NCBI RefSeq assembly: GCF_000021865.1
Contig: NC_014034.1
Span: forward strand, 3,210,001 to 3,242,000
Direction of reading: 5' to 3'
DNA: 32,000 nt
Origin: Rhodobacter capsulatus SB 1003
GTDB lineage: Bacteria > Pseudomonadota > Alphaproteobacteria > Rhodobacterales > Rhodobacteraceae
In this document: one piece after another, positions 1,380 to 21,852 of the stretch
How the letters are laid out: each line of letters opens with the position of its first letter
Numbering within the stretch: position 1 is the first letter of the stretch
The notes under the pieces: generated by a model
What the model was told of the DNA's origin: nothing
The model's input: only the letters and a program-made list of their open reading frames with translations
Databases searched by the model: none
Position numbers and translations under genes: made by a program

Positions 1380-2637
1380 TTGCGTTTTGTAGGCTGTCAG
1401 GGATACTGTCCCACGAATGGTCCACCTGTAAGCTCCTCATGACCATTTTTGTTGATTCTCCACAACGAGTTAGTTCTTCTTTTCGGATCCGGCACTTCTG
1501 GGGGGGAAATCCAGCGATGGCTGGATTAAGTCGTCAATTAAAAATGCGGCGAGTATATTAGCAAATATCCACGCTTTCGCGAATTCAGGTTCCTTTGCAC
1601 GCAAAGCATCCAAGTGCAGCAAACTTTTGAACCGCTTAAAAGCCAGTTCAATTTACCATCACAAACGGTAACAATCAGCCACTTGCTCTGCTGAATATTC
1701 ATCTTCCGGTAATGATGTTAGCAATAGCACATGGCCCGCTGCTTCCATCGTTTCCGCCTGAACTACTCGTCCTTTTCAACGATTCTCGCTGAGCAGTCGG
1801 GTTTTACTGATTAATGCTTTTTCGGGAGGAAGTGATACGGCAATGAGACGTGCCGGAAAGGGAGCTCCGGCTTTTTTATTACCTGAATTGCCTATCATTA
1901 CAGTGGTTTCACCGTTCTTACCGCAATCCAGCCCGCGCAGAAAACCCATCATGTCAAAGCGCATTCCTTCTGCAGTTAACCAGCGCAATCCTCGCCAGTG
2001 AACCCGGACGATATAATCAGCTTCTCCAAAAGCAAGTGAGCGGATACATTCGGGACGCGAACCGAATCCCCGGTCAGCAATGCGTATCTCGTCTGCCGTT
2101 TGCGCAAATCGGTCCAGCCGTTCAGCGTCTCTGCTGTCGGTTAGCTCAAAATCAGTGAACTGACAGGTATGAGGATCATATCCCATATGTAGTCGCCATT
2201 CAGCGCTGCCGCCCCCGGGCGCACTGATTGCTGTTCCATCGACAAGACGCAATCTCTTTCCGCTTGTACAACCCGTAACTGCGGCGCGTACAGCAAGTGT
2301 TTGTGCGGCAAGTATGCCAAACCAGTCGGCGGCATTCCGCAGCCGCTTCAGGAGAGCCACGTCAGATAATGTTGCAACGTCATGGAGCTGAGCCCATGCA
2401 GTGACTTCACGTAATGACATCCCCCCGGGGCCGTAAGCCAGCCCCAGACGTAGCAGAGTTGCAGCATCACGAATTTCGCGGCGGCGGGTTAGAGCCCCGG
2501 CATTACGTGCCGAAGTATCAAGTTCTTCGGGCCTACCAATATGGGCCAGAATTGCTGACCAGTTATCGTGAGAGTAATCCATCGGCACGTCAAATCATAT
2601 CAGGCGTTATACCACAACCCTTAAGTTAGCGCTCATG
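1361..2637 (-). mobile_element. IS186-like (IS4 family) insertion sequence, truncated at one end and carrying a disrupted transposase
   Basis: The segment is visibly AT-richer than its flanks. Read on the minus strand from 2637 it starts CATGAGCGCTAACTTAAGGGTTGTGG (the IS186 terminal repeat as I remember it), followed by the insL-type transposase. No inverted copy of that terminus exists at the 1361 side. IS-like sequence (..CAATTGAAGAACGCGAGGCATCG) simply runs into the high-GC repeat. Confidence 0.85.
1470..2588 (-). pseudogene. insL: IS186/IS4-family DDE transposase (InsL-like) interrupted by three in-frame stop codons
   Basis: The ORF-track piece 1776-2588 (MPMDYSHDNWSAILAHIGRPEELDTSARNAGALTRRREIRD...) matches my memory of E. 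coli IS186 InsL. The same frame continues past TGA (1776-1778), TGA (1659-1661) and TAA (1653-1655) as KGRVVQAETMEAAGHVLLLTSLPEDEYSAEQVADCYRL*W*IELAFKR...PPRSAGSEKKN, ending at the stop at 1470-1472. Confidence 0.85.
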
Positions 2638-2736: not shown

Positions 2737-4059
2737 TTACATGCCAAGCAGATTGGGCAAGGCCAGACTGATCGCCGGGACATAGGTCACCAGCACGAGG
2801 AAGGCGAGCATGGTCAGAAGCCAGGGCCAGACCGCCACCGTCAGTTCGGTGATGCCCATCTTGGTGATCCCCGAGGCGACGTAAAGGTTCAGCCCCACCG
2901 GCGGGTGGCACATGCCGACTTCCATGTTGACGACGATCATGATGCCGAAATGCACCGGGTCGATGCCCAGCCGCACCGCGACCGGAAACAGGATCGGCGC
3001 CATGATCAAGACGATCGAGGAGGGCTCCATGAAGTTGCCCGCGGCCAGCAGCAGGATGTTGACGATGATCAGGAACATCCACCAGGACAGACCCGCGTTC
3101 ACCATCCATTCGCCCAAGGCCTGCGGGATGCCCTCATGCGCCATCAGGAAGCTGAACAGCACCGCATTGGTGATGATGTAAAGCAGCATCGCCGACATGT
3201 TGGCGGACGACAGCAGCACCCGGGGCACGTCGCGCAGGGTCAGGTCCTTGTAGACGAAGACCGAGATGAAAAAGGCGTAGACGGCGCTCATCGCGGCGGC
3301 TTCGGTCGGCGTGAAGATGCCCGCATAGATCCCGCCGATGACGACGACGATCAGCATCAGCCCCCAGGCGGCCTCGCGGAAGGCGGTCCAGCGCTGGCGC
3401 AGGCTGGCCTTTTCCAGACGCGGATAGCCGAATTTGCGCGCCCGGTTCCAGGTGGTGAAGGCAAGGAAGCCCGCCAGCATCAGACCGGGCACGACCCCCG
3501 CCATGAAGAGTTCGCCCACCGAGGCCGAGGAAACCGGCTGGCCATCCGGCCCCGTCACCACCATCCCCGAGGTGGCGACGGCATACATCACCATCACGAT
3601 GGACGGCGGAATGAGAATGCCCAAGGCGCCCGAGGTGGTGATGACGCCCGCGCCGAATTGCTTCGGAAAGCCCTGATTGACCATCGCGGGCAGGATCACC
3701 GAGCCGATGGCTACGACGGTGGCGGGCGAGGAGCCGGACACCGCGGCGAAAAGCGCGCAGGCGATCACGCCCGCAAGGCCAAGCCCGCCGTGCCAGTGAC
3801 CGACCATCGCCGTGGCGAAGTTGATCATCCGCTTCGCCACCCCGCCATGGGTCAGGAAGTTCCCCGCCAGGATGAAGAACGGGATCGCCATGATCTCGAA
3901 TTTCTCGATGCCGGTGAAGAGCTTGAGCGCCACCGTGTCGATCGGCACCTGGGTCATGGTGAACAGGAAGGTCAGCACCGTCAGGCCAAGCGAGATCGAG
4001 ATCGGCATGCCGGTCAGCATCAGCGCGATGAGCAGACCAAAGATGATGAGGGCGCTCAT
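2737..4059 (-). CDS. dctM: TRAP C4-dicarboxylate transporter, large permease subunit DctM
   Basis: Polytopic membrane protein starting MSALIIFGLLIALMLTGMPISISLG, a typical DctM-family N-terminus. The ATG at 4059 lies 1 nt after the dctQ stop. This gives 440 aa, whereas the longer track start at 4086 overlaps dctQ. Confidence 0.95.
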   Translation of the reverse strand: MSALIIFGLLIALMLTGMPISISLGLTVLTFLFTMTQVPIDTVALKLFTGIEKFEIMAIPFFILAGNFLTHGGVAKRMINFATAMVGHWHGGLGLAGVIACALFAAVSGSSPATVVAIGSVILPAMVNQGFPKQFGAGVITTSGALGILIPPSIVMVMYAVATSGMVVTGPDGQPVSSASVGELFMAGVVPGLMLAGFLAFTTWNRARKFGYPRLEKASLRQRWTAFREAAWGLMLIVVVIGGIYAGIFTPTEAAAMSAVYAFFISVFVYKDLTLRDVPRVLLSSANMSAMLLYIITNAVLFSFLMAHEGIPQALGEWMVNAGLSWWMFLIIVNILLLAAGNFMEPSSIVLIMAPILFPVAVRLGIDPVHFGIMIVVNMEVGMCHPPVGLNLYVASGITKMGITELTVAVWPWLLTMLAFLVLVTYVPAISLALPNLLGM

Positions 4060-6041: not shown

Positions 6042-7916
6042 GTGGCGATCGTCGCGCTGATGACGCTGGTCGGCGCGCTGCTCTTCGCCGTCGCGCAATC
6101 CGATGCCAACCGCGCCCGGGCGAAACTGGCCACTGCTGCGCTTTGGGTCGAACAGACGCTGCGCTTTCAGATGGCGGTGGACGAGGATGTGCTGGTGCGT
6201 CTGGCGCTGGATGCCAGCGCCGGGGCCTCGCAACAGGCGCTCTCGGCCCGGGCCCGGCTGCATCTGGCGGCGAACCCGGAAACGCTGGGGCTGCGCTGGT
6301 ATGATGCGACCGGCCGTCTGATTGCCGCCGTGCCCGAGGGCCCCGGCCCGGCCGAGGCGGCGCTGGTCAGGCAGCTGCTCGCCTCGGGGGCGCTGCCGCC
6401 GCGGCCGGTCTATGGGCCGGTGCGGGACGGCCGGGTGGTGCTGGCGGAACGGGTCTCGGCCTCGGGGGGGGTGGTGGTGGCGACGGTGTCGCTGCCGATG
6501 ATGCTCGAACGCCATCTGCCCTGGTGGATCGCGGAACAATACGGGGTGCGGATTTCCGACACCTCGGGGGTGCTGGCCGAACGCGCCCGCCGCCCGATCG
6601 CCGCCGCCGCGCCGCGGCACGGCATCAGCTTCGATCCGCCGCTGGCGGGGACGACGCTGGAGATCATGGCCTATGACGCCCCCGATGCCTTTGGCAATGC
6701 CGCGCTTCTGGCGGCGATCGGGGCTTTGTCGGTCTTTGCGGTGCTGGCGATGGTGGTGCTGCACCGAAACGCCCTGCGCCGCCGCATGGCCGAGGACCGG
6801 CTGCGCGCCGAAATGGCCTTTCGCCGCGCGATGGAGGAAAGCCTGACCGTGGGGATGCGGGCGAAGGATCTGTCGGGGCGCATCCTTTACGTCAACGGCG
6901 CCTTTTGCAAGCTGGTCGGGCTGGCGGCCGAGGATCTGGTCGGCCGTGCCCAGCCGATGCCCTATTGGGCGCCCGACTTCCTGGAAGAGACCCTCGCCCG
7001 GCAGCGGCAATTGATCGAGGGGCAGCCGGTGCCGCAGGCCTTTGAAACCCGGTTCCGCCGCTCGGACGGGTCGGAAATCGAGGTGCAGGTCTTTGAAGCG
7101 CCGCTGATCGACGCGGGTGGCCGGCATCGCGGCTGGATGGGCTCGGTGATCGACATCACCCAGGCGAAACAGGCGGCACGGCTGGCGCGCGCGCAGGACG
7201 AAAGCCTGGCCCGCACCGGGCGGCTGGTGACTTTGGGCGAGATGGCCTCGACCCTTGCGCATGAGCTGAACCAGCCGCTGGCCGCCATCGCCTCCTATGC
7301 GGCCGGGGGGCTGAACCTGTTCGATCAGCCCGAGCCGAACCTGACGATGCTGCGGCAAGCCTTTGAAAAGATGGGGGCGCAGGCGCGGCGTGCCGGGCTG
7401 GTGATCCGCCGGGTGCAGGATTTCGTGAAGAAGCGCACGCCGCAGCTGGCGGCCCTCGATCTGTCCGAGGTGCTGGCCGAGGCGCTCTCGATCACCGCCC
7501 CCGTCGCGCGCGAGCATCGGGTGAAGCTCGCCTCGCTGATCGAGGGGCGCATCCCCGGGGTGCAGGCGGACCGCATCCTGATCGAACAGGTGCTGGTCAA
7601 TCTGATCCGCAACGGTGTCGAGGCGATGGCCGAGGGGCCGCGCACCGGCGACGACCTGACGGTGCGGCTGGCCCGCGCGGGCGCCGCCGTCACCATCGAG
7701 GTGATGGACCGCGGCCCGGGCATTTCCGATGCCGTCGCGGCAAGCCTTTTTGACCCCTTCACCTCGACCAAATCCGAGGGCATGGGGATGGGGCTGAACA
7801 TCTGCCGCTCGATCGTCGAGATGCATCACGGCAGCCTGTCGCACGGCCCCCGCGCGGGCGGCGGCACCGTCTTCACCGTCACCCTGCCCGTCCCGCAGGA
7901 GGGGGCCCCGGCATGA
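6042..7916 (+). CDS. dctS: Sensor histidine kinase DctS (TM - periplasmic - TM - PAS - HisKA - HATPase)
   Basis: H-box MASTLAHELNQPL, a PAS-like segment (GRILYVNGAFCKLVG), and N/G boxes (LIRNGVEAM, DRGPGI, GMGMGL). GTG start. The open frame extends upstream to 5910 without ATG/GTG/TTG, so the exact start is uncertain. It overlaps dctR in ATGA. Confidence 0.9.
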   Translation: MAIVALMTLVGALLFAVAQSDANRARAKLATAALWVEQTLRFQMAVDEDVLVRLALDASAGASQQALSARARLHLAANPETLGLRWYDATGRLIAAVPEGPGPAEAALVRQLLASGALPPRPVYGPVRDGRVVLAERVSASGGVVVATVSLPMMLERHLPWWIAEQYGVRISDTSGVLAERARRPIAAAAPRHGISFDPPLAGTTLEIMAYDAPDAFGNAALLAAIGALSVFAVLAMVVLHRNALRRRMAEDRLRAEMAFRRAMEESLTVGMRAKDLSGRILYVNGAFCKLVGLAAEDLVGRAQPMPYWAPDFLEETLARQRQLIEGQPVPQAFETRFRRSDGSEIEVQVFEAPLIDAGGRHRGWMGSVIDITQAKQAARLARAQDESLARTGRLVTLGEMASTLAHELNQPLAAIASYAAGGLNLFDQPEPNLTMLRQAFEKMGAQARRAGLVIRRVQDFVKKRTPQLAALDLSEVLAEALSITAPVAREHRVKLASLIEGRIPGVQADRILIEQVLVNLIRNGVEAMAEGPRTGDDLTVRLARAGAAVTIEVMDRGPGISDAVAASLFDPFTSTKSEGMGMGLNICRSIVEMHHGSLSHGPRAGGGTVFTVTLPVPQEGAPA

Positions 7917-19671: not shown

Positions 19672-19920
19672 TCAGCCCCCTGTCATCGGCGGAAAAAAGG
19701 CAACCTCGCGCACGCCCGCCAGCGGCGCATCGAACCCGGCCAGTTGCTGATCCAGCGCCACCCGCAGCGCCGAGGTATCGGCAAAGGCGGCCTCATAGCG
19801 CGGCTCGCGGGCGCGCAGTTCGGCCACAAGGTCAAGGACGGTGGCGGCCGAGGTCTCGACCCGCTCGCGCGGCAGGCCGATGCGCTCGCGCACCCAGGCG
19901 AAATAGACGATGTCGAGCAT
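19672..19920 (-). CDS. moaD: Molybdopterin synthase sulfur-carrier subunit MoaD
   Basis: 82-aa ubiquitin-like protein ending in the diagnostic C-terminal GG. It sits 1 nt upstream of moaE. Confidence 0.9.
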   Translation of the reverse strand: MLDIVYFAWVRERIGLPRERVETSAATVLDLVAELRAREPRYEAAFADTSALRVALDQQLAGFDAPLAGVREVAFFPPMTGG

Positions 19921-19997
19921 GTGTCCCCCGGTGGTGGTTCGGGGTGAGCCTAGCGAGGCCGGGGGGCAGAGGCAACGGGGGGAGACGGTGGGTCAGA

Positions 19998-20062
19998 GGG
20001 CAGCGCCCGACCCGAGGGTGGGCGAGAAGCGCCCGCCCGTGGGGGCGGGTCGGGCGCTGCCC
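19998..20062. repeat. Perfect 17-bp inverted repeat with 31-nt spacer
   Basis: gggcagcgcccgacccg (19998-20014) pairs with cgggtcgggcgctgccc (20046-20062). A second 8-bp-stem hairpin cccgatgc-agg-gcatcggg follows at 20060-20078. Both lie between the DUF3800 islet and moaD. Confidence 0.7.
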
Positions 20063-20110
20063 GATGCAGGGCATCGGGCGGGAGCTACATAATGGAACTG
20101 AAGCGAGAAC

Positions 20111-20917
20111 TTACCTTTTTAGCGGCATAGGCTGTCCGCGAGCACTCTTCAACAAACTGACAACTTCGGGCTGCAATTTCAAATCATCCAAGCTATGAAT
20201 ACACTTCAGGCCAACCCCAAGAATTCTTCCATTAACATCTGCAGCGAAGCGCTTTGACAGCTCGTCAAAATATCTTACTTCGGGAATCCCGAAGTTCTTG
20301 GGCGTGAGATTTGTAAGCTGAAACACTGCATGACTAACAAAATCCGCATATTCGAGCAAGGGATCCTCTCCCTTCGCGGCCGTTCCAATTGAAAAAACGT
20401 TCAGAATTTCAAGGGACTTCGAAGCCTCAAACAATGGCATGTCTTTCACTTTTTGAAGAAAGCGATACATAGCATCATAATCATGATTTCGACGCTCAAG
20501 AATCACCGAAATATCATCCGGCTTTGCTCCTAATCTCCTTAGGTAGCAGCAGACAATCTCCAGAAGATACTGGATACACTTGTTATAGAATTTCTGAGGA
20601 TCCTCTTCGATTTTCTCTTTATAATCTCCAAGCGTTTGCTTCCTAGAGATAACTGCGAAATACCTCGCATTAACCTGGCTAAAAGTTCTTGCAAGATAGA
20701 CCTTCTCCGGATGATCAAGATCTGTGGCGTGTTTCCATTTTTGCTTTCCAATTTGATCTCGAAAGAGCGAAAGCTTTTGTCTCGCGTCGATCGCTGAGGA
20801 CGGCTGAAAAACAGCAGCCCCAACAACAAAATAAGGAGAAGCGCCAGGAGAAACATCGCTCCTGACTTTTGCAATACCGGTTTCGCCGCTTTCATCGATG
20901 TAGATACTAAACGGCAA
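20111..20917 (-). CDS. DUF3800-like protein of unknown function, encoded on an AT-rich islet
   Basis: N-terminal FSIYIDESGETG and C-terminal LLEYADFVSHAVFQ resemble the DUF3800 family signature as I remember it. TTG start with AAGGGGG 5 nt upstream. Composition and codon use (many A/T-ending codons) are unlike all neighbours. Confidence 0.65.
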   Translation of the reverse strand: MPFSIYIDESGETGIAKVRSDVSPGASPYFVVGAAVFQPSSAIDARQKLSLFRDQIGKQKWKHATDLDHPEKVYLARTFSQVNARYFAVISRKQTLGDYKEKIEEDPQKFYNKCIQYLLEIVCCYLRRLGAKPDDISVILERRNHDYDAMYRFLQKVKDMPLFEASKSLEILNVFSIGTAAKGEDPLLEYADFVSHAVFQLTNLTPKNFGIPEVRYFDELSKRFAADVNGRILGVGLKCIHSLDDLKLQPEVVSLLKSARGQPMPLKR

Positions 20918-20937
20918 ACGACCCCCTTACCCTTTAG

Positions 20938-21852
20938 TTAACCCCACTCCTCCACAAACTCCCGCCACTCGCCCTTGCTCATGCCGGAGGTCTCCGCCGT
21001 CACCACCTCCCCCGCAAGACGACGTTTCAACACCTCTTTCGCCTTGGCCGAAACACTCACCGCGCCCAGGCGGTAATCCTCGAAGGCCTCGTAGGCCTGC
21101 GGCACCCAGTCCTTCACGATGTCGCCCATGATCTGCGCATAGACCCGGATTTCATATTGCGCATGCACATCCGCCCGCAGCCGCAGGAAGTGGAAGAGAT
21201 TGTGCAGGTCGATCTTCCAATACCATTGCGTGTAGACATTCGCGGGCAGGTTCATCCGCGCCAGTTCCCGCGCCAGACCCAGCTTGCCCGCGTCGGCATC
21301 CGGCGTCAGCATGTCCTCGTAATGGTCATAGGCGCGCATCGCATCTTCGCGCAGAAGATCGAGCACCCGGGCCGCCTCGGCGCCTTCCAGAACCTGACCG
21401 CGGCCCTGATTGTTCACCGTCGATTGCGCCGCCAGATGCTCGGGCGCGGGGATGTAGAATTCGCGGTCCATCACCGAATAGCGCGCGGAATATTCGTTCA
21501 CATTCGCGGTGCGGTGGCGGATCCATTGCCGGGCGACAAAGATCGGCAGCTTGACGTGGAATTTCACCTCGCACATCTCGAACGGGGTCGAGTGCCAGTG
21601 CCGCATCAGATAGCGGATCAGGCCGCGGTCATCCGAGACCGCCTTGGTGCCGCGGCCATAGCTGACCCGCGCCGCCTGACAGATCGCGGCATCGTCGCCC
21701 ATGTAGTCGATGACCCGGATCAGCCCGTGGTCGAGCACCGGATGGGCCTGGTAAAGCCGCGCCTCCATCCCCGCCGAGGTGGCGCGCAGCGTGGTCTGGC
21801 GGCTGGCCCGCTGGGCGGCGATCTCGGCAAGCTGGTCTGGGGTAAGCGACAT
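20938..21852 (-). CDS. thyX: FAD-dependent thymidylate synthase ThyX
   Basis: ThyX signature region [18 protein letters not shown] (RHR...SxRY). This copy has Asn where I recall Ser in many ThyX, and I cannot check how common that is. The ATG at 21852 has GGAG upstream. The track start at 21966 is an unsupported extension. Confidence 0.9.

Follow-up and report, generated by a model that had tools for sequence, protein, structure and literature searches.

What is a lone gene of foreign composition doing directly behind a thymidylate synthase gene, and what might its product contribute to the cell? This question is raised by a 32,000-nucleotide stretch of Rhodobacter capsulatus SB 1003 (contig NC_014034.1, positions 3,210,001 to 3,242,000; hereafter the whole of this stretch is called the window), in which an islet rich in adenine and thymine (AT) and carrying a single open reading frame (ORF) lies between thyX and moaD. 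The ORF encodes a member of the DUF3800 family, and an initial annotation, made from the bare sequence, had put it forward as a one-gene defence candidate. With slightly more confidence than doubt, we read the islet as a single-ORF accessory cassette that occupies a hypervariable slot behind thyX and encodes a stand-alone DUF3800 nuclease, most likely with a role in defence or exclusion.

DUF3800 proteins are widespread predicted nucleases found at retrons, CRISPR (clustered regularly interspaced short palindromic repeats) loci and orphan structured RNAs, and no member has a demonstrated activity in the literature that we searched. The gene examined here is a minimal, stand-alone representative in a genetically tractable host for which phages and a gene transfer agent are known, and is thus directly testable. 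The more novel part of the locus is the hotspot itself, together with its coupling to thymidylate synthase and its boundary element; the DUF3800 gene is one alternative cargo of this hotspot.

A single-gene islet of foreign composition

Read on the minus strand, the locus consists of thyX, a 20-nt spacer, the DUF3800 ORF, a 190-nt intergenic region rich in guanine and cytosine (GC), moaD and moaE (coordinates are given in Table 1). The 861-bp variable segment has a GC content of 0.441 versus 0.661 for the entire window, and in 400-nt windows the value is 0.415–0.432 across the ORF versus ~0.62–0.70 in the flanks. Codon usage follows the same pattern: GC content at third codon positions (GC3) is 0.43 for the DUF3800 ORF versus 0.77–0.83 for five neighbouring genes, among them thyX (0.82), moaD (0.82) and moaE (0.77). 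The sole other comparably low-GC stretch in the window (~1200–2600, GC 0.47–0.55) carries a DDE transposase fragment and therefore is not native; it is probably an insertion-sequence remnant. The statements of the initial annotation that the islet is AT-richer than everything else native in the window, and that its codon usage sets it apart from all neighbours, thus hold.

The single 268-aa ORF, its TTG start and its good Shine-Dalgarno sequence were likewise read correctly, as was the position of the islet 20 bp past the thyX stop. The sequence AAGGGGG precedes the TTG by four nucleotides, and this start codon is credible because homologues begin at the same residue (MPF...IDESG). The thyX stop codon occupies 20938–20940, and the longest ORF for this gene extends to 21966. 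Non-coding sequence within the cassette amounts to just 20 + 30 nt. On the coding strand, neither a sigma-70-like promoter nor an intrinsic terminator was found between thyX and the DUF3800 ORF, and no transposase, integrase or repeats were found in or beside the cassette.

The initial annotation had also suggested that two similar short sequences, CTAAAGGGTAAG and CTAAAAAGGTAAG, might be an insertion scar. Their resemblance is attributable to chance, given that the segment holds 2 near-repeat 11-mer pairs versus a mean of 4 in shuffled sequences. The two copies have only CTAAA and GGTAAG in common, separated by a 1-nt spacer in one and a 2-nt spacer in the other; the second copy lies within the last ORF codons, 30 nt inside the true boundary; and no equivalent was seen at nine other junctions of DUF3800 genes linked to thymidylate synthase genes. 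A further candidate junction motif, the 10-mer CTTCAGTTCC shared by the window and locus L109, was rejected as well, since several exact copies occur in unrelated coding DNA.

Breakpoints and accessory status

The ThyX protein was used as a query to assemble 80 loci, with one genome per species, and the best matches were those of Rhodobacter viridis (95% identity) and R. aestuarii (92%). Only R. viridis has the thyX-moaD arrangement in common with R. capsulatus, with a gap of ~1.07 kb between the two genes. DNA homology between the two species ends at 20942 on the thyX side and starts again at 20080 on the moaD side, and the sequences between these points are unrelated. Therefore, the variable segment spans 20081–20941, close to the 20083–20940 first proposed. 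The breakpoints coincide with the thyX stop codon and with a conserved GC-rich hairpin element.

In place of the 861-bp cassette, R. viridis has a slot of 948 bp (GC 0.479) with an unrelated AT-rich ORF of ~293 aa (L001 7026–7973), whose possible GTG start overlaps the thyX TGA and whose product matches neither Pfam nor PADLOC families. No relative of the DUF3800 protein was found behind thyX in any of the 80 related species representatives. The DUF3800 gene is accessory and foreign in composition.

A hypervariable slot behind thyX

Enough sequence downstream of thyX was available for 74 of the 80 loci, and a slot was counted as occupied when the GC content of the 400 nt after the thyX stop was at least 0.10 lower than that of the locus. 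By this measure, AT-rich cargo begins at the thyX stop in 34 of the 74 Rhodobacterales loci. In 27 of these 34, an ORF of 120 aa or more on the thyX strand begins between −25 and +30 nt from the thyX stop, and 19 of the 27 have start codons that overlap or adjoin that stop, often in the form ATGA. The slot behind thyX has the layout of a hotspot beside a core gene in compact form, and usually holds one promoterless, same-strand ORF that is coupled to the thyX stop. No published description of such a hotspot was found in the literature searched.

An all-against-all BLASTP comparison of 35 cargo proteins yielded four small clusters, with the remainder as singletons, and thus ~30 unrelated families; BLASTP detected no DUF3800 relatives among them. 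The recognisable cargo includes two defence reverse transcriptases of the UG13 class (PADLOC RT_UG13b, E=1.9e-127), two PIN_12 proteins, PIN_8, AbiJ_NTD4 with Abi_C, SMODS with SLATT, DUF4062 and a trypsin-like protease. Loci L025 (6903–8324) and L066 (7031–8443) carry related cargo ORFs of ~470 aa that are 45% identical and coupled to thyX. The scan did not name the two reverse transcriptases by member, and since L025 and L066 are the only pair of that size in the cargo, they are probably the two RT_UG13b matches.

Seven cargo ORFs of ~290–470 aa have no Pfam match, and the six large ones listed in Table 1 are candidates for undescribed one-gene systems. Most of the cargo is unannotated, and the defence genes are reported as a raw count. 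With dozens of unrelated, mostly unannotated single genes beside recognised defence genes, the slot offers a small area in which to look for new one-gene immune systems, and it raises the questions of why thymidylate synthase operons draw such cargo and what purpose the conserved boundary hairpin serves.

A structured element at the slot boundary

The strong hairpins that the initial annotation had noticed on the moaD side of the islet are real (z = −5.7 versus shuffled sequence). They are not part of the islet, and instead form a conserved element at the boundary of the slot. The element lies outside the variable segment, and it is considered native because it is conserved in R. viridis behind other cargo. 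Members of this element family are ~80 nt long and consist of a small variable hairpin, a long outer stem and an inner hairpin. Compensatory changes were observed in 10 of the 28 consensus pairs, and at one inner pair nine copies have G:C where six have T:A, with no mixed case. The pairing of the boundary element is under selection.

A covariance model located 15 distinct copies in 1.29 Mb. Ten of these reside in thyX-centred loci of 13 kb, all of them 15–1498 nt past the thyX stop, where they either close off the cargo on its far side or, in empty slots (L067, L071, L075), stand immediately behind thyX. The possibility that the element is a generic genome-wide repeat was rejected, since there is no copy elsewhere in ~1 Mb of thyX-centred loci; shared ancestry of the position may also explain the placement. 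Four of the copies stand in inverted orientation, and an insert of ~80 nt is found in four; of these four long variants, three are inverted relative to thyX. A two-hairpin variant follows cargo in L066, L083, L091 and the thyA-folA locus described below, and stands directly after thyX in L038. No copy was found between the tandem cargo ORFs of L012, L036 and L049, and many occupied slots have no detectable copy. The element could serve as an operon terminator or stabiliser, as a homology anchor for cassette exchange, or as a recombination site.

Given that eleven different non-coding RNA motifs are associated with DUF3800 genes (PMC5737381), the element might instead be a structured RNA with which the DUF3800 protein partners. 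The selected pairing described above would suit such a role, and the element adjoins DUF3800 genes in the R. capsulatus window, in L088, in L094 (upstream) and on both sides in L109. However, it also borders non-DUF3800 cargo in L001, L055, L057, L066, L073 and L076, including the R. viridis gene; it follows thyX in empty slots; and several DUF3800 loci linked to thymidylate synthase genes have no detectable copy. Furthermore, searches for the DUF3800-I to XI, drum and skipping-rope RNA motifs of Rfam were negative at both gathering and permissive thresholds. More broadly, no Rfam family matched in the window, in the 1.2-kb region searched with permissive filters, or in L109, which led us to discard the ideas that the hairpins are a molybdenum cofactor (Moco) riboswitch, one of the DUF3800 RNA motifs or a member of some other Rfam family. 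We judge an RNA partnership of this kind to be very improbable.

Family, predicted fold and conserved residues of the DUF3800 protein

The assignment to DUF3800 made in the initial annotation is borne out by Pfam PF12686, which matches residues 5–200 with 45.3 bits versus a gathering cutoff of 21 (E=1.9e-11, profile positions 2–148 of 149); the motifs FSIYIDESGETG and LLEYADFVSH on which it had relied are present. All close homologues carry the PF12686 annotation too. The subfamily is small and, at 50% clustering, comprises 90 representatives at E<=1e-30 and 840 at E<=1e-3 among 1.84 billion, and nearly all members are single-domain proteins of ~265 aa. A search of PHROGs yielded no more than a weak match, to an uncharacterised family.

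An alignment of 67 homologues with 45–72% identity has 34 invariant columns, including D8, E9, E141, N144, H145 and D192, from which purifying selection can be argued. The N-terminal DE motif of the family is present as D8-E9 within YIDESGE and is invariant in the 67 sequences. Invariant His, Asn, Lys and Tyr residues are found as well. A C-terminal QxxD motif has been cited for DUF3800 (PMC7736814); D192 is invariant, and the residue three positions before it is E189 (E-Y-A-D) rather than the Q of that motif, which is also missing from the retron-associated group.

The initial annotation had asked for a check for a nuclease-like fold, and one is indeed predicted. An AlphaFold2 model built from the 67-homologue alignment has a predicted local distance difference test (pLDDT) score of 94.4 and a predicted template modelling (pTM) score of 0.92. 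When this model was compared with the PDB by Foldseek, the top 18 matches were all RNase HII, H2 or HIII chains (probability 0.66 to 1.0, template modelling (TM) score 0.35–0.55), with the best match being 1eke (E=5e-4, probability 1.0, TM 0.46–0.55). Among viral models, a phage DUF3800 protein ranked best, followed by RNase H proteins. In the model, the carboxylates sit at the end of strand 1 (D8, E9), at the end of the strand formed by residues 136–141 (E141) and in the helix of residues 188–199 (D192). The DUF3800 protein is thus predicted to have an RNase HII/H2-like fold.

These predictions agree with earlier proposals for the family. Mestre et al. (2020, PMC7736814) took RNase H2 as the template for the retron-associated DUF3800 protein and gave it a D-E-E-D site; RNase H-fold nuclease is also the description used by Altae-Tran et al. 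and by Makarova et al., and DUF3800 has been described as an RNase H-fold accessory at some Cas12a2/a3 and type VI-F loci (PMC10910872, PMC12669027). The view in the initial annotation that the family has no experimentally established function stands for the literature searched; the family is nonetheless a predicted RNase H2-like nuclease that had already been linked to retrons, CRISPR loci and non-coding RNA motifs.

Linkage to thymidylate synthase genes in other genera

Close homologues (52–62% identity) are encoded by the first gene after thyX in Tabrizicola, Nioella, Roseicyclus elongatus and four metagenomic contigs, with gaps of 15–139 nt between thyX and the DUF3800 gene and with differing downstream genes. 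In Mameliella, a homologue follows thyA-folA, 64 nt past folA, and contig L086 has a second folA-DUF3800 junction whose FolA is just 54% identical. ThyA and ThyX are unrelated enzymes that make the same product. The adjacency to thyX is not incidental, as it recurs across genera and with the analogous thyA-folA genes; the link may be mechanistic, or else it may be a property of the slots. A replacement of thyX by thyA-folA in situ is not favoured for Mameliella, where the flanking genes are not syntenic, although it may have occurred.

More distant members (43–51%) occupy a recurrent site flanked by a DUF1194 gene on one side and, on the other, by a convergent gene of the parE/gyrB type, and one member (53% identical) sits between an ORF6N gene and uvrB. 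All of these homologues are AT-rich single ORFs in GC-rich surroundings. A still more distant relative is found in the temperate Rhizobium phage RHph_TM3_3_3, 12 nt downstream of a gene for an S24 CI-type repressor. The site behind a CI-type repressor is a typical place for exclusion genes that are expressed in the lysogen.

This distribution might be taken to indicate a repair or quality-control nuclease that is tied to thymidylate metabolism and co-expressed with thymidylate synthase, for example one that makes RNase H2-like incisions in DNA containing ribonucleoside monophosphates (rNMPs) or uracil when the supply of deoxythymidine monophosphate (dTMP) fluctuates. The recurrence behind thyX and behind the non-homologous thyA-folA, the RNase H2-like fold and the lack of an apparent promoter of its own are all points in its favour. 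Nevertheless, several lines of evidence lead us to consider such a role quite unlikely. None of the 80 related species representatives has the gene behind thyX, the composition of the gene is strongly foreign (its GC3 value being set against ~0.8), and more distant members reside elsewhere, for example beside parE or uvrB. Likewise, the pairwise identities of ThyX and of DUF3800 are uncorrelated (Spearman rho = −0.10, six loci), and in one locus pair ThyX is 89% identical and DUF3800 only 57%, which also counters simple vertical inheritance of the thyX-DUF3800 pair. Finally, the slot accommodates ~30 unrelated families, defence genes included, and the linkage to thyX would therefore belong to the slot and not to DUF3800.

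The foreign composition and isolation of the gene, together with distant homologues on one temperate phage and two plasmids, could alternatively point to a neutral or selfish hitch-hiker, left behind by a mobile element or phage and now without function for the cell. This we find hardly credible, since the ORF is intact, 34 residues are invariant in 67 homologues of many genera, the ORF length is ~265 aa throughout the subfamily, and the cassette lacks the transposase, integrase and repeats looked for in and beside it. An origin of the cassette from a phage or plasmid was also rejected, as only the one distant phage match and two distant plasmid matches were obtained.

Proposed role of the cassette

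The favoured reading, a stand-alone nuclease cassette with a role in defence or exclusion, would operate as follows. The slot extends from the thyX stop codon to the conserved GC-rich hairpin element, and the cassette, which appears to lack a promoter of its own, would most likely share a transcript with thyX and rely on a Shine-Dalgarno sequence of its own for translation. To judge from the predicted RNase HII/H2-like fold and the invariant D-E...E...D carboxylates, the product is most likely a divalent metal-dependent nuclease acting on a nucleic-acid structure. Its most likely role would be that of a constitutively expressed one-gene defence or exclusion nuclease directed against phages or other invading DNA, and it might target the RNA:DNA hybrids of the invader or other intermediates of its replication.

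The defence role is suggested by the company in the slot, where UG13, AbiJ-like, PIN and SMODS-SLATT genes are found, by the associations of the family with retrons and CRISPR loci, and by the DUF3800 gene behind the phage repressor. On these grounds the initial proposal of a one-gene defence candidate appears reasonable. The family to which the gene belongs is known but uncharacterised, and defence or exclusion is the most likely role of the gene as judged from context.

Several observations weigh against this reading. The comparison with known defence systems that the initial annotation had called for was negative: PADLOC-DB v2.0.0 returned 0 families at E up to 10, in a library whose coverage of the retron VII effector was not checked. 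An NCBIfam search of the DUF3800 protein gave no match, sequence searches against solved structures in the PDB were negative with the single sequence and with the profile, and the structural similarity to RNase H2 is moderate (TM ~0.5). For no DUF3800 protein was experimental activity found in the literature searched. Most of the cargo families in the slot are uncharacterised, which makes guilt by association weak, and the recurrence behind both thyX and thyA-folA ties the subfamily to two unrelated enzymes and hence to a possible metabolic or repair role. Moreover, the presence/absence pattern is clear between species, with 0 of 80 related species carrying the gene behind thyX and R. viridis carrying another one in its place, and is not matched within the species: all 24 of 24 R. 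capsulatus contigs that encode this ThyX or this protein have the same arrangement, and no variability of the slot was seen among them.

A bolder interpretation is that the space behind thymidylate synthase genes (thyX and, in some lineages, thyA-folA) in Rhodobacterales is a dedicated cassette-exchange site, and that DUF3800 is a new one-gene defence linked to thymidine metabolism. Promoterless single-gene immune cassettes would then replace one another in the interval from the essential gene's stop codon to a structured GC-rich boundary element serving as a recombination or homology anchor; exchange might be mediated by gene transfer agents or a trans-acting recombinase, and cassette expression would be hard-wired to transcription of thymidylate synthase. 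The repeated occurrence of DUF3800 beside two unrelated thymidylate synthases would stem from a mechanistic tie to thymidine metabolism, for instance if the nuclease attacked phage DNA or replication intermediates whose content of uracil or modified thymidine is abnormal. We regard this extended scheme as unlikely.

The features discussed above are compiled in Table 1. In most of loci L001–L080, thyX ends near positions 6900–7030.

Table 1. Coordinates of the cassette, its flanks and related features, numbered within the window or within the locus named
Feature	Location	Strand	Remarks
Variable AT-rich cassette	window 20081..20941	-	861 bp, GC 0.44; from homology breakpoints with R. viridis (L001) and GC profile
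DUF3800 ORF	window 20111..20917	-	268 aa, TTG start, TAA stop; ADE86764.1 / WP_013068737.1, Rhodobacter capsulatus SB1003
Spacer between thyX stop and ORF	window 20918..20937	-	20 nt; Shine-Dalgarno-like AAGGGGG at 20922-20928
thyX (flavin-dependent thymidylate synthase, Thy1)	window 20938..21852	-	upstream anchor of the slot; 304-aa form of public assemblies
GC-rich structured slot-boundary element	window 19997..20081	-	small hairpin, long outer stem, inner hairpin; 71 bits, E=4.5e-10
moaD (ThiS family)	window 19672..19920	-	downstream flank; in this position in R. capsulatus and R. viridis only
ORF with partial DDE_Tnp_1 transposase domain	window 1776-2588	-	270 aa; inside the second low-GC stretch
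Cargo ORFs behind thyX without Pfam match	L020 6909-7958; L030 6920-7978; L035 6929-8044; L050 6906-8093; L062 6906-7841; L070 6912-8312		312-467 aa
DUF3800 gene directly after thyA-folA, then two-hairpin element variant	L161/L162 2664-4816; L090; L086 2-1164		Mameliella and one other lineage
AT-rich DUF3800 ORF between DUF1194 and convergent parE/gyrB-type gene	L092-L095, around 3001-3830		
Distant DUF3800 gene of Rhizobium phage RHph_TM3_3_3	L165 4249-5819	same as repressor	MN988468.1; 28% identity
Boundary element copies, selected	L055 7826-7905; L067 6966-7046; L075 6930-6987; L094 2757-2838; L109 454-536 and 1527-1608		
Long boundary element variants	L073 7950-8112; L071 7013-7158; L066 8527-8667; L051 3540-3701		141-163 nt; ~80-nt insert in outer stem

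Comparison with known systems

Among the closest known systems is the DUF3800 effector of type VII retrons (PMC7736814), which belongs to the same Pfam family, has the N-terminal DE motif, is modelled as RNase H2-like with a D-E-E-D set of carboxylates and shares the absence of the Q of QxxD, the corresponding residues here being E189-Y-A-D192. Unlike the retron effector, the R. capsulatus protein is stand-alone: no reverse transcriptase or msr/msd is nearby, and the adjoining genes are thyX, moaD and moaE. The TPR-DUF3800 accessories of Cas12a2/Cas12a3 and type VI-F loci (PMC10910872, PMC12669027) are similarly predicted RNase H-fold nucleases in a defence context. The protein described here differs from them in being a single domain of 268 aa with neither TPR, cas genes nor an array, and no CRISPR family was detected at gathering score anywhere in the window.

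Relative to RNases HII, H2 and HIII, which are the best structural matches, four carboxylates are conserved, and the DE pair that ends strand 1 resembles the ‘DEAG’ motif of RNase HII. However, the identity to these enzymes is 10–16% only, with TM scores of ~0.5 and no sequence-level match to solved structures, the third carboxylate is Glu instead of Asp, and the DUF3800 protein has its extra invariant His, Asn, Lys and Tyr.

With regard to genomic setting, the slot resembles the core defence hotspots of Pseudomonas aeruginosa (PMC10250203) and the hotspots of Escherichia coli (PMC10121019) in that a fixed site by a core gene receives low-GC cargo of high variability, with known defence genes among it. 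The slot behind thyX departs from this pattern in four respects. Its cargo is usually a single promoterless ORF of 0.4–1.5 kb on the same strand; the stop codon of an essential gene is where the cargo starts, or is overlapped by it; a conserved, structured GC-rich element often delimits the far side; and the slot persists in many genera with differing genes beyond it.

Integron cassettes offer a further analogy, as they too are promoterless single ORFs in one orientation that rely on upstream transcription, and as attC is likewise an imperfect palindromic element after the ORF whose structure is conserved more than its sequence. Nonetheless, the boundary element tracks host relatedness and not cargo, being nearly identical in R. 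capsulatus and R. viridis behind different genes, and it is missing between tandem cargo ORFs and from many occupied slots. No integrase was seen in the gene calls of the annotated loci from six genomes, and a recombinase may act in trans. The slot behind thyX shares its fixed core-gene site with defence hotspots and its promoterless, singly oriented cargo with integron cassettes, and differs from both in the ways set out above.

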